From a virus (taxonomy: Duplodnaviria; Caudoviricetes), in IMG/VR virus record IMGVR_UViG_3300011008_000010, positions 32,001 to 96,000 of that record: a stretch of DNA of 64,000 nt. One strand, 5' to 3'. The notes under the pieces were generated by a model. It was given only the letters and a program-made list of their open reading frames with translations, was not told the DNA's origin and searched no databases. The first letter of the stretch is position 1. Each line of letters starts with the position of its first letter. Below, one piece after another: positions 34,500 to 53,946 of the stretch. Both the position numbers and the translations under genes were made by a program.

Positions 34500-37400
34500 A
34501 TGGCCAGTAATCAAGTAGAAAAAGTATTTAAATTCAGGGTTGATGTAGAGAATCCCTCGCAACAGTTTAAAAAGCTGTCACAAGAGGTTAAAAAACAAGT
34601 CGAACTATCAGCCACAGAAATAAAGATTCGCCCTGATGAAAATACAATTCCTGCTATCGCAAAAATACTTAGAGAAATTGAAGATAAGACAGGAATTACA
34701 ATTGACGTTGAAGCAAATTTGCAAAACGTTGAAAATCAGATTGCGAATTTAAAGAAACAGCTCAAAGATTTGAAATCTCCTTCTGAAATTGTTCCTAATA
34801 TGCGCAATATAGACAAGACGAATTATCTTAACGATCTTGCCAAAGACGCAAAGACGGCGAAGAAGGATGTTGAAGAACTTGGCAAAAAAGCGGAAGAAGC
34901 ATTTGCATCATTTGAGAGAAATAAAAATCGTAGAACTTATAGCGAATCATACAAAGAAGATTTGAAGAAGTTTCAGGAAGAATTTGTTCTTGAAACGAAA
35001 CTGTCTGATGTAAGAGATAAAGCTTTAGAGCAATTACAGGCTATTTCCAGTACGCCTGGTTGGGCTAACGAAGCTACAGAAGTGGCCAAGGTCATTGAAC
35101 TATTAAAGCAAGTTCAGTTGATTAACGAGAGAATCGTTGAACAACGGAAGAAAATGACTGAAGATCAGAAGCAGTTTTATAATGATAACGGTGTCACTAC
35201 AAATACAAAGATGCCTTCTGGTATAGATGCCAGTGCCGTATCTAAAAAGGTCGAACAAATTGCCAAAAGTTCCGATGGTCTTGTCGCATCTATTCAGGAG
35301 AATTTAAAGTCTCTACAAGCTGAAAAGAGAATGTTGGATGATCTTACAAAGTCCATGCAGGAATTTACAGCAGCGACAGATCAATCTGTTCAGACCGGTG
35401 GCAAAGGTGGTAGTGATACCGGGCTTGAGATATCTCCTACCGGATCAATTGATATCAGAGCGAATGCAAAGATTGAAATAACAGGACATGATGTAACGGT
35501 TATTCCGGAAAGTCCTGTTACTATTACCGGATCTAATGTCAGCATCGATATTGAAGCCGGTGCGTTCAATGGATTGAAAACTAAATCTTTGCAGAACGCA
35601 ATCGATATGATCAAGCAGATTGACGCTGCTATTAAGAACCATCAGACAATGACTCCTGAGATTAAAGAGGGGTCGTTAAAAATCGAGAGCGTAATACCTA
35701 AGAAGGTCAGCACGCTTACTATACCGGTTAAATTAGGTAAGTTGTCAGCAGAGAAGGTTAATAATTTTGTTGCAACTGCAAGTACAGAAGTTGCCGGTAT
35801 GGGAGCTGCCGTATTGATGAATACGGGGCTTAGAGATATAGCAAAAAAGGAAATTAATCGAGTAATTTCCGATACTAATAAAAAGGCAAAAACCGCTACA
35901 ACCAAGGTTAAGTTGGAAGCAGAACTTGTACTTGGCAAAGGAACGAGTGAAAAGGTTTCTGGAATTGAAGAAAAGGTCGGCTCTCTAACCGAGTCATTTG
36001 CTAATCTTCCAAGTACAATAACCGGTTCTGCCACAGAGAGTGTTCGTGCACTTGAAGAACTTAGAAAAATTATCGCCGATATTGACGAGAAGGTAAAAGA
36101 TATATCTAATGTCAAAATTACGCTTAGACATACCTCTCAGAAAGATGGCGGTAGTAGTAGTAGAAGTTCTTCTGGTAGTGGCACATCTTCTATTTCTGGC
36201 GGTCAGATGTCGAAGTTGTCTTCTTATGTAAAAGGAGTTTCAATTCCTAATACATCGGAACTTGATATAAAAGAATTAAGGCTTATATATCTTGAGCTCA
36301 TGAAGATATACGGACTTGCTGAAAAGATTCCGAAGGCAATGTTCGGCGAAGGCGAGAACTATATTAATTTTTCGAAAGAGCGTCTTGTTGCAGAAATAGA
36401 GGCTCTTCAACAGAGAGATGCTGTTCTAAAGGAAGAACAGAAAGTCGAAAAGGCGGTAAATGATTATCTCAAAAAGCAGATTTCGCTTCGTAACGAATTA
36501 GGAAAGAAGCAACAGGATCTTCGAGAGAAAATGGCCGAGATGTATAACGGCCTTTTCTATGGAGATGAGAATGCTAGAGACAGTCTAAACAATCTGCTTG
36601 AATCAATTGATCTCGATAAAATGATGTCGGATGGGAATCTTGACGTTGCCAAGAAAGTTCTTGGCGATGTTGCTTCTATTGTAAAGGAGATCCAGGATTC
36701 TAACAAAAAAGGTGCCACGGAAGCCAATAAAGCCCTCGAAGAAGCCGTCGAGAAAAGCAAACAGCAGCTTGAACTTGCCAAGCAGAGACGCGAACTCGAA
36801 GAAAAGATAACAAACATGAAGTCTGCGGTAGGATCTAATGACGATGAGTTCTATTCGAAGACCATAAACGAAATAGAGTCCGCGTTTAAGAAAATTGACG
36901 ATCACGGTCTTGCCGATAACATTGGCATCGAAAAGAGTAAACTTGATGAGATTAGTGAAGGATATAAGAATGTCACTAATATGATTAATTCTGCTTATGA
37001 CGCAGAGTTAAAAAGAGAAAAGGCGGCAGATGAGTCCTTTAAATTCCAACAGCAAATAATCAATCAACAAAATAATCTTCTAAAAGAAAAAGCAGAGCTT
37101 GAGCAGAAAATCCAGAAGATGTATGAGGATGGAATTGTTCGGGCAGAGAAGCTAAGAGACGTTGAAGAAGAACTTGCTAAGATTGATATTTCAAGCCCTT
37201 ATGATACTAATGGCAAAGCAAATCCTCTTGGCGGGGATGTTTTAAATAATTATGGGCAATCGCTTGACAACATAAGAAAGAATCTCGTAAATCTTGAAGC
37301 GCAAGAAAAGAAGGAGCTTGATGGCAGAAAGAAATTAGCCGGTTTCCTGCTAAACGAAAAAGAACTTCGTGAAAAGATTGCAGAGTTAAGAACTTATGGC

Positions 37401-40400
37401 AGTACGGATAAAGAACAGCTTGATAAGTTAGAGCAAGAGCTGAATACTTTTAATCTTGATAAGCTTGCAGAAAAAGCAGAGGCTCCTGCCAGAAAAGCAA
37501 TTGACGAGATTACTGTCGGACTTGGCAAGGTTAGAAAAGAACTTTTTGAAATTGAAAAAGCTACTATCAAACCGGCCAGTGCCTTAAAAGATCTTGGTAA
37601 GAAACTAAGAAGTTTTACCGGAACGCAAGAATGGCGCGACACATCTGATGCAAATATTGGCCTTAATTATATTGGATCAGAAGAGCAGCTTGCCAAAATA
37701 AGAGCTGCACGTCAGGAAATTGCACAGCTTGTTGAAACTGTCGGCAATATCAGCAAAGAATTCACCAAAGAAGAAGCCGAGAAGTTTACAAAGCAATATG
37801 AGAATGCAATCAGTAAGTTTGAAAATGCCGTAAGAAATGTTCAGAGAAAGACGGCTAAGAGCGGGAATGTTACTGTTCTTGGTACGGACACGTTGCATCA
37901 AGTTCAGGAAGTTGAAGATGCTATTAAACGCATTAATGAAATAGGTGCAAATGCTAATATTCAATGGACCACAAAAACAACCGGCGACATTACAAGGCTT
38001 ACCGGTGTTCTTACTGAAAATGATGGTACGGTAAAGACTCTTGTATATGATTACAATAATCTTACTACAGAGTTGTCTGAAGTAAGCGTCACAGAAAAGC
38101 AAACTGAAACATTTATGCAGCGCATAACAAAGTTGCTTCGCCAGAGAAGCGATGCTTTGATTGCGTACATTGGTACGTTCGCAAGTTTCTATCAAGTTAT
38201 GGGGAAACTTCGTGAAGGTGCTACTATTATCAAACAATTAGATACAAACATGACGGAGCTTCGTCGTGTTAGCGGTGCGACCAGAGGAGAATTGGAAGCT
38301 TTTAAGAGCACCGTTTTTGATATCGGTAGAGAAATTGGTTCTGCCGGAGATACAATTATAAAGCTTGCAGCAGATTATGCAAGACTTGGTTATTCATTAA
38401 GTGAAGCAAGCGAACTCGCTAAAGCATCTGCAATGTATATGAATGTAGGTTTTATTGATGATGCGACTTTTGCTATGGAAAGTTTAACATCGACGATGAA
38501 AGCTTACGGGATGCAAGCGAGTGAAGTTGCAGATATTGTTGATTAGAGTCGTTATCATATTGAAATAGATAACGATATATAGTTAGTCTATAGAGAAATC
38601 CGTAGATAGCGCGTTAAACGCCAACAAAGAAACTGAATTGCTGGGATACCGTAAAACTAATAGAACTACAACATAGGGATGAAACAAACTCAAGTGTGAA
38701 TGTGGCGAAAGCAGAAAAAATCTATTAGATGGCACATGGTTAAATCCTAAATGCTTCTACAAGAAATTGGTAATCAGCAGCCAAGCTCCGAACAGGAGAA
38801 GGTTCAACGACTATCCCTCGTGAGGGGAGTACACGCAAGCGCGTGGAAGTGGTTTCGCCTAAACGTATCGTAAGGTACGCATGGATAAGATATAGTCTGT
38901 GCCTTACTGAAAGGTAAGGAAGTTCATAAGAGAACTGCATGAGAAGTAGCGAGCTTATGTGAACGACGCCTCTAAAACGGCTAAAGTTGTGTGGTAATTA
39001 ACAAGTGGTTGTTACCGCTATGCATATGTAAAATTTTTAATATGTTTTTTTGCTTGACTTATTAGGGATAAATGCAGCATAATATTTATCGTGTAGTGGA
39101 TATATAATTTATTTATAGGTTTTGCGCATATGATTAAATCATATAGATTTAGACTTTATCCCAATAAAAGTCAAAGAGAACTTATGGCTCAAACATTTGG
39201 TAATTGCAGATTTGTCTATAATTATTATTTGGATAAAAGAATAAAATACTATGAAGAAACCAAAGAAACGTTTGGGTTTTATCAATGTTGCAAAGATTTA
39301 ACAGAATTAAAGAAGAAGTATGAATGGCTTCAAATATCCGATAAATGGGCTTTGCAAAACACATTGAAAGATTTGGACTTTGCGTTTAAAAATTTCTTTA
39401 GAAATAATGGTTATGGATATCCTCGGTTTAAATCAAAGAAAACACATAGATATTCTTATAAAACTACTTTTACAAATAATAATATAAAATGGTCGAAATC
39501 TGCAATTAGACTCCCAAAATTAGGTTGGGTTAAAGTAAGAGACAAACAAATACCACAAGGCAGAATTCTTAATGCTACGGTAAAACATGAACCATCTGGA
39601 AAATATTATTGTTGTATTTGTTGTACGGATGTTGAAATATCTCAACTTCCAAAAACGGGTTTAAACATTGGAATGGATTTAGGCCTTAAAGAATTTGCAG
39701 TTACCAATGACGGAACGAAGATAAATAATCCTAAGCACCTAGATAAGTCACTAAAGAAGCTTGTTAAATTGCAGCGAGAACTAGACCGAAAGACAAGGAA
39801 TAGCAATCGTTGGAATAAGCAAAGAATTAAAGTGGCTAGAATGTACGAGCGGATTACGAATCAAAGAAAAGATTTCTTGCAAAAATTATCCACGCAGATA
39901 ATATCAGACTATGACATTGTATGTCTTGAAAAATTAGACATACAAGAAATGATTGAACGTGCTGATTTTTCAAGAAGTATATTTGACGTATCATGGAACA
40001 TGTTTGTTCGAATGCTCGGATATAAAGCCGAATGGTACGGTAAAAAGGTGGTTAGGGTTGATAGATGGTACGCCAGTTCGCAAATTTGTTCGTGTTGTGG
40101 GCATGTTTACAAAAAGACAAAAAGTTTGTTAGTTCGGGAATGGACGTGTCTTAAATGTAAAACTCATCACGACAGAGATGTGAACGCTGCAAAAAACATA
40201 TTAAAAGAAGGGCTTCGAATAGCCTAATGTATGTATAGCGGTAGGAACTACCGTGTTAGCTCGTGGAGAAAGTAGGTAACGAAATCTGTGAAACGAGAAT
40301 CCGCAACTTTAGTTGTGTGAGGTTCAGAAGTTTAATGAAGTGGGTAAATTGTTGCCCTTGAATGGCTATATCGGTCAAAGGGTGGGGACACCAGAGACCG

Positions 40401-43400
40401 AGCAAAGACTTAATATATTGCCGAAATGTGCTTAAAGAAAATGCGTTGAGGATAAACAATATGTTATGGATGCGTAACGACTGCGATATGGTATGTGGCA
40501 ACACATATTGTTAAGCCTATCCATGCGTAATAAGCTATCGCATGTAATATACAGTCTGAACTACCGCTATAATCCAAATAATTATGAAACGGTAGAGTAA
40601 GGCCGAAAGACCTTGCCGCCACAGAAATGTGGTCATAAAAGCAACAGTTAAATTTGAACAATTTTGCAATTAGCTCTGAAGGCATCGGTGAAGCCTTACA
40701 GAGATCTGCTGCTGCGCTTGCACAAGCAAACAATGATTTAGACAAGAGCATCGCTCTTGTTGTGGCTGCTAATGACGTTGTGCAGAATCCTGAAACAGTT
40801 GGTACTGCACTGCGCACGGTGGCTCTTCGCATAAGGGGTAACACATGTTATTTTATTTTGTGCCCATCCAGAGAGAAATCCTGGTCTGCGTTGCGAATAA
40901 TAAATTACGCAGCATGATCGCTATATCGGTCAAAGGGATAACGGTATCCAGAGACCGACGTAACCCATAGTGGGGTACGCTACAGACTGCCAGATCTATA
41001 TGGCAACATATAGGTTTAAGCGATCTCGCTCTCCTATTCTGGAAACGATGATATACAGTCGGAACTCACGCTATAACCGTAATTAATGAAACGTGAGAGA
41101 TAGCCAGAAATGACTATCCGCCCGCAAGGGTCAGTAGCTTTAATCCAGGCGAAAGTAACAGAGTGGCAAAAGCGGATTTAGAAGAGTTAGGTGAAGACAC
41201 GGATGGATTAGCTAGCTCTGTATCGTCTTTAAGAGCAGAGGTTCTGGCACTTTCTGGTGTTGACATCATGATTGATGACAACACATTTAAAGATACTTAC
41301 AACATTCTAAAAGAACTTGCCTACGTATGGCATGATTTGACGGATGTTTCCCAAGCAGCTCTCTTAGAAAAGCTTGGTGGCAAACGTGGTGCTAACGTAA
41401 TCGCATCTATCCTTAGTAATGTAAACGATCTTGAGGCGGCTTATGCAGCCGCTGCTAATGCTGCCGGTTCTGCATCGGCAGAAAATTTAAAGTATCTAGA
41501 AAGTATCGAAGGTAAATTATCTCAACTCTCTGCTTCCTGGCAGGAGTTTTGGGATTCTTCATTTTTAAACAGCGTATTTAAAACCGGAATAAATTTATTA
41601 AATGGATTTGTTCAGATCTTAAATGATGCTGGCGGCATAGATTTTGCCATCACGCTCGCTGGCGTTGTTGGTTTGACACAGGCTATTAAACGGCTTGGTG
41701 GTTTTACCGGCAAGATAACAGAATTATATAACTCCTTTAAAGATTTCAGGGCGCTCATGAAAGATAATAATCTGAATTGGGCCGGTCTTTTTAAAGGGAG
41801 TTTCGTCAACGAGAAAGATATTAAAAAGAATGTAGAAAAAGTTGTTGGCAGTGCTTTCTCAACATACAATCAGGTATTTAATGCCGGTGGTGGTACTCAG
41901 GAAGCTGCTGCAAAAGCAAGTAGTGCGGCTTTAGCAGATCTCGTAAAAAATCAGGATCTATTGGCAAAATCATCCAGCGATTTAACTAAGTCTATGATTG
42001 AACGGGCTGCTCAAGAAGGTACGAACATAACGCTTGAACAGCAAGAAGCGAAGACAGTAGAAGTTCTGAACAATGAACTTGAGACTGGCGGAAAGAACAG
42101 TGCTCAATTTGCTAAAGGTCAAGCGGCAATGAAGAGTGCTATTGCTGCTATTGCTGTTATTGGCGTTTCTCTTGCCATTAATGCTATCAGCGCCTACATT
42201 CGAAAACAGGACGAATTAAGAGAGAAAATTATTGAGAACGGTAAAACGCAAGTAAAGCAAGCACGTAGTTTGCGTGATGCCGTTAATAGTTTTGATAAGA
42301 TCAATGCCGACTATAAGACCGGTGCGGCGACATCAGACGAATTAAGAAATGCTATTGAAGGCGTAAACGAAGCTCTCGGAGATCAAAAAGAATTATTAGC
42401 CGGTGTTTCGTCTGGCAGTGATACTTGGAGAAAGCGTCTCGATGAATTAATCGAGAAACAGAATGAGGTTGCTAAGAACGCGGCTCGTTCTGCGTTGTAC
42501 AATGCATCTAAGAAAAGTGCGACAGATACGGTCAAAGGTATTGGCTGGAGCATTGCCAAATACTGGACTTCTTCTTGGGGAGGTATGTTGCCGATTGGCA
42601 ACCTCCTTAAAGACGTAAATCCGATCTCTAAATTTTTTGGAAATAAGAAGGATCTTACCAATCGATCTTCTCAAATTAAGGCATTAAAGGAATGGCAGGA
42701 TGAGTTAAAAGAACTCGAAGAAGAATATAAAGAACTTGAAAAAGCCCAAGAAGAGGCTATGTCGGAAAATAATGGTGCTGCACTAAAGACCAATCCGATA
42801 AAGGTTCTTCTTGGTTGGCAAACGGATTATGCGAAAGAACTTGATAAGAATCAGAAGAAACAAGACGAGTTAATCAAGAATATTGCTCAATATAATGATT
42901 CTGTTCAAGAGACGGCTCAGGCAGCAGCATATCTTGTTTGGGAAGACAGTATTAAAGATATAGATAATGCGGCTGACAAATACAAAAAATTAGATAAAGC
43001 CGTAGAGGATGTAATTAGGACATTTGGACTTGCCGATGACGAAGAAGGCATCAAAGCCGCCAAAGAAATGATTCTGAGTTTCATGGAAATGGATTCGGAA
43101 TCTGCTGGGTTTATGGCTCTTAAAAAGGGAGCCGAGGATGCATCTAAAGCAATTGGTGCTGCAAGCGTTTCCGTAGAAGGACTGTTAGAAGCGTTTGATA
43201 AAGGAGATCTGACCGAACAAGACATTTTTGATCTTAGCGATGAAAGATTTAAGAATTATGTAGAGCAGAACCAACTTTATATTAAGAGTGTAGAGCAAGC
43301 TATCGAAACGCTTCATGCTTGGAAAGATGAAGTCAGAGCCGAGGCGAAAGAAACCAATACGCTTGTTGGTGTTATTAGGGACTCTAAAGATGCCATAGAT

Positions 43401-46400
43401 GATTTCCAGTCTGCTATATCGAAACTTGGTGCTATAATGAAAGCCGATTATTCGAATAACGCTTCTGGTATGATCGATGATCTGCAAGATCTAATCGACG
43501 TTATCAGTGGGATGGATACCAAAGTATCCGAGCAATTATTCGATAAGTTAAATAGTGCGTATAGCGTAGAAGCTCTTTCGTCTGCAATGAAGAAGGCCTC
43601 CGAAGAGGCAATGAAATTTAAATTAGATGGCTTAATTGATTCGTTAAATCTTGCAAATCCTGCATTGGAAAAGATGCTTCGTCTTCTTGTTGAACAGGAA
43701 AAACAAGTAGAAGCAATTACATCTGATTTAGATTCGTTTAAATCTGCTTATCAGAACCTTATTGGGGTGGTAAAAGAATACAATGAAAACGGATTTTTAA
43801 CGGCGGATAATATTAACACCATTCTGTCGATGAGTCCGGAGTATTTGGCTGCTCTTGATTATGAAGGTAATAAGCTAAAGTTAAATGAAGAAGCGTTAAA
43901 GAAAATTGTCCTTGTTCGATTGGAAGAAGCAAAGAGGCAAATTGAGTCTAATAGACATACTCAATTGTCTGCAATATATGCAGAACAAGAAGCGAGGGCA
44001 AAGCAAAAGTCTGCCGAATTAACATATGAACATGCGACAGCATTGTTACAAGAAGCAATTGCAGCAGGAAAATCTGAAACAGAAATACTGAAACTTGAGA
44101 AGCAAGTTTATAAACTGTATGAAGCACAACAAAAATTACAGGGTGTAGAGTTTTCGGGTACGCTAGATTCAGATTTGCAAGAGCAAGCAGATGCAGTAAA
44201 TGAAACTGCCGATGCTGCGATTGATAGTATTGATCATGTCATAGACGAGTTTGAAAACGGATCTATGGATGCGCTCAATACATTTCTCGGTGTTACAGAT
44301 GACATTGAAAAAGATGCCGAGGATGCCGCAGAAGAACTTAAATCTCAGATAGACTCCGTTCTTTCTAAGTGGAAATCTGCGCTGGATTCCGGTGCGATTA
44401 ACTATAAGCAATATCTGGACAAAATGAAGTCCATGCGCAATCAGTATGCAGATCAGTTAAATACCGAAGATTTGCTGCAAATGGATGTAGATATTGCCCA
44501 GGAAGAACAGAATATGTGGAAGGAGGCTATGGACGCTGCCGGTAGATATATTGACCGGGAGATGAAGAAGCCTATTGAAGATCGTATCACCGCATTAAAT
44601 TCTGAGAAAGATGCATTAGAAAGAAATAAGGATGCCATCAGTGATTACTATGATGGTATCATTGATGGTTTTGAGAAACAAAAGGAAGCTGTTGAAAATC
44701 AGATTGACGCTGTTGAGAAAGCGTATGAAGCTCAGATTAAGCCTCTTGAGAATCAGCAGAAGGCAATCAATAAGCAAATTAAGGCTATTGAAAAGCAGAA
44801 GCAAGTTATTGAGGATGAGATAAAGGTTCTTGAAAGATCTAAACGGCCTTATGAAAAACAACAAAAGGCTATTGATAAAGAAATTAAAGCGATTGAGCGT
44901 GAAATTTCTGTTATTGAAAAATCCAAGAAACCTTATGAGCAGAAACAAAAGGCATTAGAAAAGGAAATCAAGGCAATTGAAAAGCAGATTGATATCCTTG
45001 AACGCTCCAAGCGTCCTTATGAAGATCAACAGAAGGCGATAAACAAGGAAATCAAGGCGATTGAAAAAGAGATCAACGCTCTTGAAAAGACTAAAAAGCC
45101 TTATGAGAAGCAACAGAAGGCTATTGCAAAGCAAGTTAAGGCAATACAACGGCAGATCGATGCGCTTGAAGATACAAAACGTCCTTACGAAGATCAGCAA
45201 AAGGCAATTGACAAGCAAGTCAAGGCAATTAATAAACAGATTAAGGCTTTAGAGAAATCCAAAAAGCCTTATGAAGATCAGCAAAAGGCTATTGACAAGC
45301 AATCAAAGGCAATTCAGAAGCAGATAAATGCTTTGGAAAAGTCTAAAAAGCCCTACGAAGATCAACAGAAGGCGATAAGCAAAGAAATCAAGTCTATCGA
45401 AAAGCAGATTAAGGCGATACAGGATACTGAAAAGCCCTATAAAGAAGAACAAGAATCAATCGAGAAGTCTATTCGTGCGATTGAGCAGAAAATTAAAGCG
45501 TTTGAAAAACTGCAACAGCCATATAAAGAACAGCTTGATCTTGTTAATAAGGAAGTTGCCGCTCTTGAGAGAGAAATTGAACTTATGGAGCGGTCAAAAC
45601 GATCTTATGAACAACGACGTGATGCAGTTCAAAATGAAATTGATGCTCTGGAATATCAGATGTCTGTTATTGGCAGACAGGAAACTGCGTATAAGCGCGA
45701 ACAAGACGCTCTGAATAAAGACATTGAACTTCTTGAGCGCCAGGTTTCTATCCTTGAATATAGGAAGAAGCCTTATGAAATTGCACAAAGACAAATTGAA
45801 AGACAGATTGGTCTTTTGCAGCAAGAGCAGAAAGAACTTGAGAAATTAAAAGAGCCTTACGAAGAAGAGATTAAAGCCTTAGAGAAAGAGCTTGAGGCTA
45901 TGCAGGAAGCCAATGAAGAACGGCAAGCTGCACTTGATCTTCAACAGGCAGAATATAATCTCAGGAGAGCACAGCAGCAAAGAACCAATTATGTTTATCA
46001 GGATGGACAGTTCCAGTATATTGCAGATCAGACAGCTATTAAAGATGCTCAAAAGACGATAGATGATCTCAAATACGAGGAATCTGTAAAACGCGTTGAA
46101 AAGGCAATTGATAGGTTACAGGATAAGATTGACGAGATTACCGCTCAGAGCGATGCTATCCAAAAAGATATCGATGAACTGACAGATAAAAACGATCAAC
46201 TTGCCGAAAGCATTCAGCGCATACAGGATGAAATAGATCCTATTCAGGACGATATAGATGAGCTGACGTTTAAAGCAGAAGAATTACAGTGGTCTATAAA
46301 TGACATTGAGTATTCGATGACAAGTATCCAGTATGCCATCGAAGACTTAGAGGCTGCAAACGAAGATTTGGAAGAATCAATCCGACAGATTGACGAAGCT

Positions 46401-49400
46401 ATTCAGCCTTTACAGTATAGGCTTGATTCATTAAAAGATACTGCTTCTGACTTGCAATGGGAAATCGACAAGATACAGCAATACATCGATCCGTTAAATA
46501 CAGAGATCGAAGGGTTGAATGATACGATTTCTGAACTTCAGCTTATTATTGATGAAATCGAAGAATCAATTGATCCGCTTAATGAAAAGATCGACGAGCT
46601 GAATGAGCACAATGATTTATTACAGGAATCTATCGATGCTATAACAGACGCGATTGAACCGTTAAACGAACAAATTGACGAGTTAGCGGAACAGTCAGAT
46701 TTAATACAGGAAAAGATTGACGAAATTAATGATGCGATTGATCCTCTTAATGATCAGATTGATGATCTGAATGAACAAGGGGATGAATTGCAAGAAATGA
46801 TCGATTCTATCGGCGAATCTATTGATGAGCTAAGTCGTCAAATAGATGATCTGAATAGGCAGAGCGATTTTATACAGGATATTATCGATGAAATCGATGA
46901 GGCTATTGAGCCTCTCGAAGAACATTTAGACGAACTGAATGAAAAGAGCGAAGAGCTTCAAGAGCAAATAGATGCAATTGATGAAGCAATCGAACCTTTG
47001 CAGAGAACAATCGACGAGTTAAACGATCAGATTAGTGATTTGCAGGATGTTATCGATGCTATCGATGAATCTATGGAGCCGCTTCAGGAAAGAATCGAAG
47101 CACTTAATGAAGAGAGCGAAGAACTTCAGCAGACTATCGATGAAATCGATGAGGCCATTGAAGAACTGAACTATCAGCTCGAACCGTTAAACGACGAGAT
47201 TGATCTTCTTAACAGGCAGAACGATGAACTTAGCGAATCAATAGAAGAACTCAGAGAACAACAGGAGTTGGAAGTTGAAGCGTTACAGGCTCAGAGCGAC
47301 GCTATAAGCGAACAGATTGATTATTATCAGCAGTTAAAAGAACAGGCAGAAGAATCGATCCAGGCTCAGATAGATAAAATCGATGAACATATCGATGCGT
47401 TGGATAAGGAAATCGAAGGTATCGAAGCATATAAAGATCAGCTCACGAGCATCTTTGATGAAATTGATGCAAGAAAAGACGAAGATCTTCTTACTACGTT
47501 ATTCGGTGAAGGATGGCAAGAGAAACTACAATCATTAGATCCTCAGATTATAGCTGATTTTGCTGCTGGATATGAAGATTCTACGGAAAGATTAAAGGAA
47601 GCGAATCAGGTAGTCATTGATTCGTTAGAAGGACCAGATGGTCTTGGACAGGCAGCGGAAGAAACCGAACAAGACGTGTCTGAATTAAAAGATACGATGG
47701 CCAATGCCGATGAAGCAATAGGCGAAGGATCGATTAAGGATGCTATGGATCAGACTGCTGTATCTGCTGAAGATATGGCAGAAAGTTTTGTTAAAGTTAG
47801 AGACAACATTGACGAAGTAATTGATGCTATTGGAAGGCTTTGGGAACAGCGTGGGACTTTTAATGAAATTGGAGGCATGATAGATGTCTACCTGATTCAA
47901 AAGTTCCATGAAACCAAAGAAGCTATTGATCCTACTTTAATTGATACAATTGGTTTGCTGTGGGATGCCGTTCGTGTCAACAGCGTGATGATTGGCGATG
48001 CCATCGAGAATAACATATTAGGTGCTCTAAAGGATATTGAGGAATTCTTGAATAAGAATATTCCCGAAGCATCTGATTATGCAAAACAAGAGGTGATCAA
48101 AGATATTGAAGAGATCGTCTCTTTTATGACTGATCGTGCGCAGCCTGGTTTATTAACTGCAATCGATACGATCAAAGAAGAGGCAATCAACGCTTCCGAT
48201 GAAATTGTTCGTGAAGTTGAAGACGATATAGATCAGATCGTTAGTTATGCGGAAGATCCTGGTAAAGCACAGCTTGTTGCTACGGCAGAGCAGACAAGGA
48301 TTGATATTTCTGAGATTTCAGATGATCTTGTGGATGATATCGAAGATGATGTTAGAGAAATCTGTGAGGTTATTGTTCCTAATGGTCTTAGAGAATGCGA
48401 AAAAGAGATACAAGATTCCGTTGATAATGTAATTATTCCTAAATTAAGGGATATAAAAGACGAGATCGACGAAATTGTTAGTGCTGCTTTAGAAGCAATG
48501 CAAACTGTTTCTGAAATGGGTATGACAATTGCCAATGCAATTAATGAGGTTGCACAAAATATTAGCAATGTTATTAGTGGTATTGAGGAATCAATTAATA
48601 ATACCTATGAAAATCTCACAAAAGAAGGCGGTCTAATACAAAAGCTACATGAGGCGGCAGAAGCTGCTGCTCAGATCCCTGGATATGGTGTTGCTCAACC
48701 AGATCAAACTCAGGATGATGGCGGTGGCGGTGATCAGAATAACAATTATGATAATAACAACGGTGGTGGTGACAATAATTATGATGTTCAGTCTGCCGAA
48801 GTTCAAACAGATCAGTTTGTTGTTCAGAATGCCAATATTGAAATGACAACATCTGAAGGTAAGCGAGATGGATATCAAACTTACCGGATGGGCGAAAAGA
48901 GCATTTCTTATCAAAGATATAAGACCGAGGCTGGAAAAGAAGAAATTGAAAAATGGAGAGCGCAAGGTTACGACATCAGAGTAACATCTGGAGTTGGTGG
49001 TCGAACACTCTTCACTGTTGATCGCTATGGCAAAGGTGGGTATGTTGCAACTGAAAAGTTAAAGACGCCACTTACCAATTTGGCCAATGCTGTTGGCGAA
49101 GATAAGATGGTCGCCGTACAAGAAGGCGAACGCATCCTTACTCCTACTCAAAATAGGGATTTTGAAGAATTTGTCAGATTAACACCTGAGTTAATTAGTG
49201 CAACTGAAAGTCTTGCAAAATATGCAAAATTATTCGAAGACATTTCCACTATGGATTCGATGGCGTCAGAAGCAGGCATGATGCGTGGTGTCAATGGTGT
49301 TGTGGACAGAGCAAATGCTGCTCCTGTTACGAATAATACTATGTCGCTTAATATCGGTGATATCCATGTGCATGAAGCTAAGAATGCTGACGACCTTGCA

Positions 49401-49460
49401 AGACAGATTAAGAACAATTTGCCTAACTCTTTGATTCAGGCGTTAGGTAGAGCAAGTTAA
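34500..49460 (+). CDS. tail tape measure protein, spliced: join(34500..38543,40328..40345,40657..40839,41166..49460), 4179 aa
   Basis: the TMP core (LDTNMTELRRVS...ADYARLGYSL...DIVD-KFNEVG-NNFAISSEGIGEALQRS...RIRG-AKADLEELGED...LLEKLGGKR) is contiguous only when three inserts are removed; each insert follows a U and ends in G. Confidence 0.9.
39054..39083 (+). promoter_or_regulatory. possible internal promoter for tnpB
   Basis: TTGACT-18 nt-CATAAT. Confidence 0.4.
39130..40227 (+). CDS. tnpB: RNA-guided endonuclease TnpB (IS200/IS605 family)
   Basis: YRFRLYPN N-terminus, RuvC-I GMDLGL, RuvC-II CLEKL, zinc finger CSCCG..CLKC, RuvC-III DRDVNAAKNI; catalytic D/E/D all present. Confidence 0.95.
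   Translation: MIKSYRFRLYPNKSQRELMAQTFGNCRFVYNYYLDKRIKYYEETKETFGFYQCCKDLTELKKKYEWLQISDKWALQNTLKDLDFAFKNFFRNNGYGYPRFKSKKTHRYSYKTTFTNNNIKWSKSAIRLPKLGWVKVRDKQIPQGRILNATVKHEPSGKYYCCICCTDVEISQLPKTGLNIGMDLGLKEFAVTNDGTKINNPKHLDKSLKKLVKLQRELDRKTRNSNRWNKQRIKVARMYERITNQRKDFLQKLSTQIISDYDIVCLEKLDIQEMIERADFSRSIFDVSWNMFVRMLGYKAEWYGKKVVRVDRWYASSQICSCCGHVYKKTKSLLVREWTCLKCKTHHDRDVNAAKNILKEGLRIA
40238..40327 (+). ncRNA. omegaRNA scaffold/IS605 right end (5' boundary approximate)
   Basis: CGGTAG-GAA-CTACCG hairpin, GCTCGTGGA...GAAACGAGAATCC, subterminal hairpin, terminal TTCAG. Confidence 0.8.
40346..40656 (+). ncRNA. group I intron 2 of the tape measure gene (311 nt, no ORF)
   Basis: P1 GGGU|AA/UUGCCC with U-G at the splice site; AAAUUGUU pairs with 3' exon AACAAUUU (P10); P7 GACTG 40479/CAGTC 40552; terminal G. 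Confidence 0.88.
40840..41165 (+). ncRNA. group I intron 3 of the tape measure gene (326 nt, no ORF)
   Basis: P1 GGGU/GCCC; UUUUGU pairs with 3' exon GCAAAA; P7 GACTG 40985/CAGTC 41056; terminal G; core similar to intron 2. Confidence 0.88.
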
Positions 49461-53784: not shown

Positions 53785-53946
53785 AGATGCGGAGTTCACA
53801 GCTTTAATTGTGAAAATGAGAGGTTGGCAATACCGTAGGGCATACGGAAATTTACGCTTGTGGACTCTGTGTAAGACTAAAGGTGTGAGCCAATGCAGTA
53901 GAGGTTGAAGCAAGAATCCAGCTATTTTAATTGTGGGGAGTGTCAT
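53785..53946 (+). mobile_element. non-autonomous IS605-type mini-element: left hairpin plus omegaRNA-like right end (boundaries approximate)
   Basis: TTCACAGCTTTAATTGTGAA; CCGTAGGGCATACGG; GCTTGTGGA...GAAGCAAGAATCC; TTTAATTGTGGGGAGTGTCA. Confidence 0.7.

Follow-up and report, generated by a model that had tools for sequence, protein, structure and literature searches.

A micro-exon in a phage tape-measure gene doubles as the predicted guide of an IStron-borne TnpB and as a P1 strand of the adjacent group I intron

IStrons are the known case in which a single RNA must act either as an intron or as a guide RNA. Group A IStrons are inserted after TTGAT (or a T-rich pentamer) and have TCAG as their 3′ terminus (PMC4227781). 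Splicing of an IStron severs the omegaRNA scaffold from the guide (bioRxiv 10.1101/2023.11.20.567912), guide maturation and splicing compete (bioRxiv 10.1101/2023.11.20.567912; PMC13521648), and the 3′ exon influences the efficiency of splicing rather than the choice of site (PMC13521648). The transposon-associated motif (TAM) of the C. difficile IStron (CdiIStron) is TTGAT; it is also the TAM of the ISDra2 TnpB, which has native guides of ∼16 nt, cuts 15-21 bp from the TAM, and is active with 16-nt guides ended by a hepatitis delta virus (HDV) ribozyme (PMC8612924). Here, we describe an IStron in the tape-measure gene of a Caudoviricetes phage, located within a stretch of 64,000 nt (the window; bases 32001-96000 of the 137.8-kb IMG/VR virus record IMGVR_UViG_3300011008_000010). 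The IStron (intron 1) lies 18 nt upstream of another group I intron (intron 2), and by our analysis the 18 nt between them encode six residues of the tape-measure protein, supply one strand of the P1 helix of intron 2, and form most of the predicted TnpB guide. The IStron and the family of intron 2 are further cases of known element types; the overlap of guide, P1, and code, together with a predicted cut on the intron 2 site, is a novel configuration. The exons, introns, and elements of the tape-measure locus are on the + strand, and positions are those of the window.

The tape-measure gene is very large and appears as three pieces in the list of open reading frames (ORFs). Its conserved core, described by the Pfam profile PF10145, is broken three times, by introns 1, 2, and 3. 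Exon 1 (34500-38543, 1348 codons) was defined by the ORF list, by PF10145 positions 6-80 at its end, and by alignment with homologues; its final codons, ATT GTT GAT (Ile-Val-Asp), are the source of the TTGAT motif. Exon 3 (40657-40839, 61 codons) covers PF10145 positions 87-145, and exon 4 (41166-49460, 2764 codons plus the stop codon) was defined by the ORF list and by homologues that are continuous through RIRG/AKA (a slash marks a junction). The profile thus stops at position 80 in exon 1 and begins again at 87 in exon 3, and the missing positions 81-86 correspond to the six codons of 40328-40345, KFNEVG. Five homologues from viral contigs (L003-L007, ∼42% identity) are uninterrupted and read I(V/L)D-KFNEVG-NNFAISS...RIRG-AKA across all three junctions. 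Joining of exon 1 to the 18 nt upon IStron removal restores the host frame and gives IVD/KFNEVG, as in these homologues, and precise removal of intron 2 gives KFNEVG/NNFAISS, which is likewise continuous in L003-L007 and makes the Pfam positions contiguous. The spliced product would contain 4179 amino acids. At the protein level, these alignments confirm the micro-exon and the boundaries 38543/38544, 40327/40328, 40345/40346, 40656/40657, 40839/40840, and 41165/41166, and on this evidence we conclude that the 18 nt are a genuine micro-exon of the tape-measure gene. An earlier note on this DNA had proposed that the stretch codes for KFNEVG, and both the six-residue gap in PF10145 and the five uninterrupted homologues bear this out.

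Intron 1 (38544-40327, 1784 nt) is a tnpA-less group A IStron of the CdISt1 type. Its junctions read ...ATTGTTGAT/TAGAG... at 38543/38544 and ...GGTTCAG/AAG at 40327/40328, with the last G of the element doubling as the omega-G of the ribozyme. The TTGAT at 38539-38543 constitutes the IS605/CdISt1 insertion motif, the predicted TAM of TnpB, and the last bases of the IStron 5′ exon; insertion after TTGAT and a TCAG terminus were likewise found for the IStrons of L054 and L057, described below. The group I ribozyme core (38569-38919) matches the full RF00028 model of Rfam (1-253) with 65.9 bits, compared with a gathering score of 50. The tnpB gene (39130-40227) encodes 365 amino acids with the Pfam domains PF12323, PF01385, and PF07282, and the protein is 57% identical to C. 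difficile TnpBs and matches the ISDra2 TnpB (8bf8) with E = 1.2e-94. The RuvC residues D (GMDLG), E (CLEKLD), and D (HDRDVNAA) and the CxxC...CxxC zinc-finger cysteines are all present. These motifs were read from the alignment to a 408-residue AI-designed TnpB (9yyg), which covers the same residues as the ISDra2 TnpB; on this alignment the active site is intact, and the protein is presumably active. The IStron is single-copy in the 137.8-kb record. A search of the TnpB against genome contigs provided no confirmed relative, and megablast with 38000-41800 as the query gave no match in the phage collection. A promoter-like site (39054-39083, TTGACT-18-CATAAT) with 10 of 12 matches in a consensus scan is located between the ribozyme and tnpB; it is the best sigma-70-like match of the region, in which the number of such sites is not above that of shuffled sequences. 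This site, if active, may give rise to tnpB-omegaRNA transcripts that lack the IStron ribozyme. We found no convincing P10 pairing between the IStron and the micro-exon, in agreement with the published effect of the 3′ exon on efficiency and not on site choice (PMC13521648).

The predicted omegaRNA scaffold (40190-40327) spans the tnpB 3′ end to the right end of the IStron and includes a right-end hairpin at ∼40301-40318 that is present and covarying. The consensus fold of four homologues contains 19 pairs, 9 of them with compensatory changes; no Rfam family matched the scaffold. The right end (...GAGGTTCAG) is common to a 72%-related IStron, a C. difficile IStron, and a plain IS605-type element. 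These are represented by L054 and L055 (related IStron with a 72% identical TnpB and an Rfam group I score of 69.3 bits, inserted after ATTGAT), L057 (C. difficile IStron), and L056 (intron-less IS605-type element), which share the scaffold, all end with GAG(G/A)(T/C)TCAG, and then diverge completely. Because the similarity stops at 40327, the right end was assigned to this base and the start of the guide to 40328, and the prediction that the stretch is a TnpB guide is thereby upheld: the micro-exon (40328-40345) is at once the 3′ exon of the IStron and the first 18 nt of the predicted guide. Past the right ends of the L054 and L057 IStrons there is ordinary exon or intergenic sequence and no neighboring intron. 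In the window, TTCAG rather than TTGAT stands before the guide-matching copy, and self-targeting by the element is therefore not expected. When the right-end 15-mer was searched in viral contigs, none of the 33 matches was IStron-related by blastn or tblastn.

Two observations concern possible relatives of this element. The phage-type IStron at L054:2400-4230 (also in L055) splits another very large coiled-coil gene, and its predicted guide starts with GAACTTGGTTATCAGAGCGA. In the window itself, an intergenic region at 53785-53945 is arranged like an IStron omegaRNA scaffold with no tnpB. Inspection by eye identified a ACCGTAGGGCATACGG hairpin, GCTTGTGGA...GAAGCAAGAATCC, an end hairpin, and a terminal ...GGGGAGTGTCA directly before an ATG; this region, which did not emerge from a blast of the record with the IStron, could be an additional, orphan element that supplies guide RNA to the same TnpB.

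Intron 2 (40346-40656) has the features of a group I intron, with an internal guide at 40348-40357, a P7 formed by 40479-40483 with 40552-40556, and omega-G at 40656. The internal guide AUUGUUGCCC pairs at 10 of 10 positions with the ligated exons GGGU/AACAAU. In the predicted P1, the GGGU at the end of the micro-exon (40342-40345) and the AA that begins the intron pair with UUGCCC (40352-40357), and the splice-site pair is a U.G wobble; this hairpin (-6.9 kcal/mol) is present in both the minimum free energy and centroid folds, which supports the previous assignment of GGGU as a strand of P1. In P10, the first six nucleotides of exon 3, AACAAU, pair with AUUGUU (40348-40353). The statement that intron 2 and exon 3 both start with AA is correct (AAA and AAC, respectively), and the shared dinucleotide is explained by the alternate pairing of the two AAs with the same UU of the internal guide, as P1 extension in one case and as P10 in the other. 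Two orthologous introns (L013 and L014) retain 9 of the 10 guide pairs through compensatory change between the 3′ exon and the internal guide. Intron 2 is single-copy in the record. Intron 3 (40840-41165, 326 nt) is an ORF-less paralogue of intron 2 that also follows GGGU, and its internal guide UUUUGUGCCC pairs at 10 of 10 positions with GGGU/GCAAAA. Introns 2 and 3 have in common GGGU as the end of the 5′ exon and GCCC as the P1 part of the internal guide (40342-40357 and 40836-40865); the 3′-OH of exon 2 could dock in intron 3, with skipping of exon 3 and an in-frame loss of 61 codons.

A pattern made from the 5′ part of intron 2 retrieved 101 stretches in IMG/VR viral contigs (loci L058-L157). 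Members of this subfamily always follow GGGT, possess the internal guide UUGCCC, and recur at sites encoding ...DAAEAG/, ...EVTAMG/, and ...KFNEVG/; none of those tested was detected by RF00028. The alignment of 15 ORF-less members supports P1, P3, P4, P5, P7, P7.1, P8, P9, P9.1, and P9.2, the P3/P7 pseudoknot included. In the family structure test, 89% of the cells were paired, compared with 28-38% in slid controls, compensatory change was seen in 32 of 55 pairs, and 0 of 500 shuffles scored as high. The covariation identifies intron 2 as a genuine group I intron of a widespread phage subfamily that the Rfam model misses. A family-wide test of P10 gave a modest difference (3.65 vs 3.18 pairs of 6, standard deviation 0.16) with 3′ splice sites that were approximate, being placed by a regular expression; the case for P10 relies instead on three orthologues and intron 3. 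A search of viral contigs with the core pattern GGTCAAAGGG..CAGAGACC produced only chance matches in coding DNA. Two relatives of intron 2 carry nuclease-like ORFs in P6, one in L014 and the other in the tape-measure gene of Thomasclavelia phage TR-TP1. Distant TnpB genes were also noticed near introns of this family: at L087:8426-9719, a TnpB (26% identity) is followed by an Rfam RAGATH-18 RNA (71.5 bits) ∼2.6 kb downstream of the intron, and further examples are in L139 and L116.

The exact 20-mer composed of the micro-exon and the following AA was found in the tape-measure genes of only two other phages, L013 and L014, when viral and metagenome collections were examined; the metagenome scan re-found L013 (as L017) and returned three other matches, all in unrelated genes. 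L013 contains ATTGTTGAT and 20 of 20 target bases. It carries orthologues of intron 2 (at the identical position) and of intron 3 as well as a fourth intron, and has no IStron. L014 contains TAGAT, 20 of 20 target bases, and an ORF-bearing intron 2, and has neither intron 3 nor the IStron. The family search added 26 viral contigs with intron 2 at the KFNEVG site, none with the IStron, and 14 of the 26 have TTGAT and two mismatches to the guide. As judged from these contigs, natural IStron-free alleles with the predicted TAM and a perfect or near-perfect target exist. Because at least 28 IStron-free contigs (L013 and L014 included) have intron 2 at this site, we conclude that intron 2 was resident first and that the IStron arrived later. 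The earlier note had claimed that a 20-nt guide fits alleles with or without intron 2; the letters do match either way, whereas matching alleles that lack intron 2 remain hypothetical.

The micro-exon is the same at 18 of 18 positions in the window, L013, and L014, with flanks of 52-66% identity, and we considered reading this as an "island of identity" representing a target fixed by intron 2. This idea was dropped because other intron-2-bearing alleles show 2-6 mismatches and the conservation is limited to a sub-lineage. With regard to additional introns, the fourth intron of L013 (L013:2734-3207) lies in the tape-measure core between ...ELVAG and KRQGN... and belongs to another group I type (36.9 bits with RF00028, less than the gathering score), and L109 has a canonical group I intron (93.9 bits) ∼800 nt past its intron 2. 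The core of the tape-measure gene is an intron hot spot.

The best overall explanation, which we regard as likely, is that an IStron inserted beside the resident intron 2 and that the roles of the 18 nt follow from the rules of both elements. A CdISt1-type IStron, comprising a group I ribozyme, tnpB, and the omegaRNA, would have inserted after the TTGAT of the conserved Ile-Val-Asp, 18 nt upstream of intron 2. The guide of an IS605-type element is the first 16-20 nt of its right flank and the 5′ strand of a group I P1 is the last bases of the 5′ exon, so the three roles would come together on this stretch. Functional tape-measure mRNA would require the removal of all three introns, and transcripts that keep the IStron 3′ end would provide the omegaRNA. 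Its guide, the micro-exon plus AA, would direct TnpB to IStron-free TTGAT-target alleles, with or without intron 2; judged against ISDra2 (∼16 nt), even an 18-nt guide would be long enough. If the cut is staggered as in ISDra2, at 15-21 bp from the TAM, it would straddle position 18/19, which is the insertion site of intron 2, and repair from the IStron-bearing genome would copy in the IStron, plus intron 2 if the recipient is without it. The window has 180 TTGAT sites on the + strand. For one of them to receive the IStron 18 nt upstream of an intron is an unlikely single event, a priori about 1 in a few hundred, and given this number of sites the arrangement resembles a rare insertion by chance, one that would have survived because the IStron splices.

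Several findings weigh against this explanation. Neither tnpA nor a tnpA remnant was found in the IStron, and the left-end hairpin motif GAYTTTAGTY of L054, L056, and L057 is absent from it; at the left end (38544-38610) there is a GTTATC...GATAAC hairpin where relatives carry ..ACTCGYGAYTTTAGTCRTGAG.. instead. The Y1 transposase TnpA recognizes subterminal hairpins at both ends of such elements. Without tnpA and the left motif, movement by a Y1 transposase is improbable, and the element probably depends on TnpB-driven homing; it may also be an immobile relic with an idle TnpB. The insertion is known from one phage lineage, consisting of the window and the identical short contigs L052 and L053 from two further samples, JGI 3300010998 and 3300011005. 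No intron-2-less allele with TTGAT and a matching target was found in the homologues searched, the intronless homologues have at least four differences to the guide, and L006 and L007 lack TTGAT. The flanks of L013 are only 52-66% identical to those of the window, and recombination with the L013 phage would be poor. At E ≤ 1, RF00028 did not match introns 2 and 3 or their relatives in L012-L014, a result that, given the family structure test, is best read as a gap in model coverage. Finally, the explanation presumes that TnpB is active, that its TAM and cut position are as predicted, that homing occurs, that the introns are in fact spliced, and that the omegaRNA is made.

A related explanation supplements insertion beside a resident intron rather than excluding it. 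The ORF-less introns 2 and 3 might use TnpB in trans, such that a break at the intron 2 site co-converts intron 2 with the IStron, with the effect perhaps extending to intron 3, 201 nt of exon away. The position of an ISDra2-type cut, on both sides of 18/19, is as this idea would predict, the 20-nt target is independent of intron 2, and introns 2 and 3 are ORF-less here, whereas P6 contains a nuclease-like ORF in the L014 orthologue and the TR-TP1 relative. In phages, collaborative homing, in which an ORF-less intron depends on a free-standing endonuclease, has been documented (PMC3984707). Yet intron 2 spreads without the IStron, as the IStron-free contigs indicate, the intron-2-less recipient with TTGAT and a matching target was not encountered, intron 2 leaves the target unprotected, unlike the introns of classical collaborative pairs, and the cut position is borrowed from ISDra2. 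On balance, we consider such sharing of the nuclease rather unlikely.

The contrary possibility is that the IStron landed by chance and cannot transpose, that its TnpB and omegaRNA are idle, and that the overlap has no role beyond splicing. The lack of tnpA and of the left-end motif, the single copy, and the restriction to one lineage are all compatible with this. They must be set against a tnpB frame that is open over its full length and keeps every catalytic motif, omegaRNA helices maintained by compensatory changes relative to the homologues, a right end that is intact to its final base, and the existence of a natural TAM and target. Moreover, tnpA-less IStrons are the rule in C. difficile, where they are still expressed and spliced. 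An inert element is quite unlikely in our estimation.

The earlier note had further suggested that the order of splicing arms the nuclease. Its premise that intron 1 splicing parts scaffold from guide is correct, and the point was already published for IStrons (bioRxiv 10.1101/2023.11.20.567912). What is new in the suggestion is that guanosine, on attacking 40345/40346 in step 1 of intron 2 splicing, would free an RNA with the scaffold and an 18-nt guide ending in a 3′-OH. The chemistry fits in that the intron 2 5′ splice site is exactly 18 nt past the right end, the native guides of ISDra2 are ∼16 nt, and the activity of 16-nt guides ended by the HDV ribozyme is an engineered precedent (PMC8612924). 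After cleavage, P1 would hold the exon by 4 bp only (GGGU/GCCC), so its release is conceivable, and the promoter-like site inside the IStron could yield tnpB-omegaRNA transcripts that are unable to splice the IStron yet contain intron 2. Against this, other TnpBs and IStrons obtain their guides with no neighboring ribozyme (the closest IStrons, L054 and L057, have no adjacent intron), a free 5′ exon is normally a short-lived intermediate on the way to exon ligation, and a guide that continues into intron 2 or exon 3 would still match the respective allele, so that processing is not needed. In addition, this is a single instance, and the occurrence of intron 2 at the site in at least 28 contigs without the IStron gives no sign of co-adaptation. 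Thus, cleavage by intron 2 may set the 3′ end of the guide, being chemically possible and not required, and control of the nuclease by splicing order appears improbable. Still more doubtful is a three-way partnership in which intron 2 trims the omegaRNA to an 18-nt guide and TnpB in return mediates the homing of introns 2 and 3; if this is true, how fast the two introns splice relative to each other would determine the proportions of tape-measure mRNA and armed nuclease. Skipping of the micro-exon as the normal route was rejected because KFNEVG is conserved among homologues.

With insertion beside a resident intron as the preferred explanation, the locus has a predicted guide that is an entire exon between two ribozymes as well as a part of the substrate helix of the second one, and a single 18-nt sequence would be constrained by protein coding, two splicing reactions, and DNA targeting. 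The locus is compact (∼2.7 kb) and clonable. It bears on whether a neighboring ribozyme can define the 3′ end of a guide, on TnpB binding versus the splicing of an adjacent intron, and on whether an RNA-guided nuclease can drive the homing of its own intron and of neighboring ORF-less introns between co-infecting phages. The analysis also exposes a widespread phage group I subfamily that is undetected by the Rfam model.

Among the known systems, CdISt1 and the CdiIStrons of C. difficile are similar to the present element in having a 5′ group I ribozyme of the Twort-like IA2 type, tnpB, and a right-end omegaRNA (PMC4227781; bioRxiv 10.1101/2023.11.20.567912). They too are located after TTGAT, end with TCAG, have splice sites that coincide with the transposon ends, and often lack tnpA, and their guide is the 3′ exon, which makes splicing and guide use mutually exclusive. 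The present IStron differs from them in residing in a phage structural gene, in having an 18-nt 3′ exon that ends at the 5′ splice site of another intron, and in missing the consensus left-end hairpin. The ISDra2 TnpB and its right-end element RNA (reRNA) are alike in that the protein is a close homologue, the motif is TTGAT, and a guide of ∼16 nt derives from the right flank (PMC8612924); in the engineered reRNA, an HDV ribozyme positioned right after the guide fixes the 3′ end, which is the layout that the earlier note proposes to occur naturally with intron 2. ISDra2 differs in having no intron, and the HDV ribozyme self-cleaves irreversibly, whereas a group I intron normally proceeds to exon ligation. 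In collaborative homing of phages, as at this locus, a nuclease beside an ORF-less intron is predicted to cut the site of that intron in naive alleles (PMC3984707). Here, however, the nuclease is RNA-guided and carried in the neighboring intron, and intron 2 leaves the target undisrupted. Landthaler and Shub reportedly described, in 1999, three introns and exon skipping in orf142 of Staphylococcus phage Twort, an example of a phage gene with several group I introns and very short exons, for which no micro-exon is said to act as the guide of an RNA-guided nuclease as well. The tape-measure locus resembles that gene in its clustered self-splicing introns within a conserved part of an essential phage gene.

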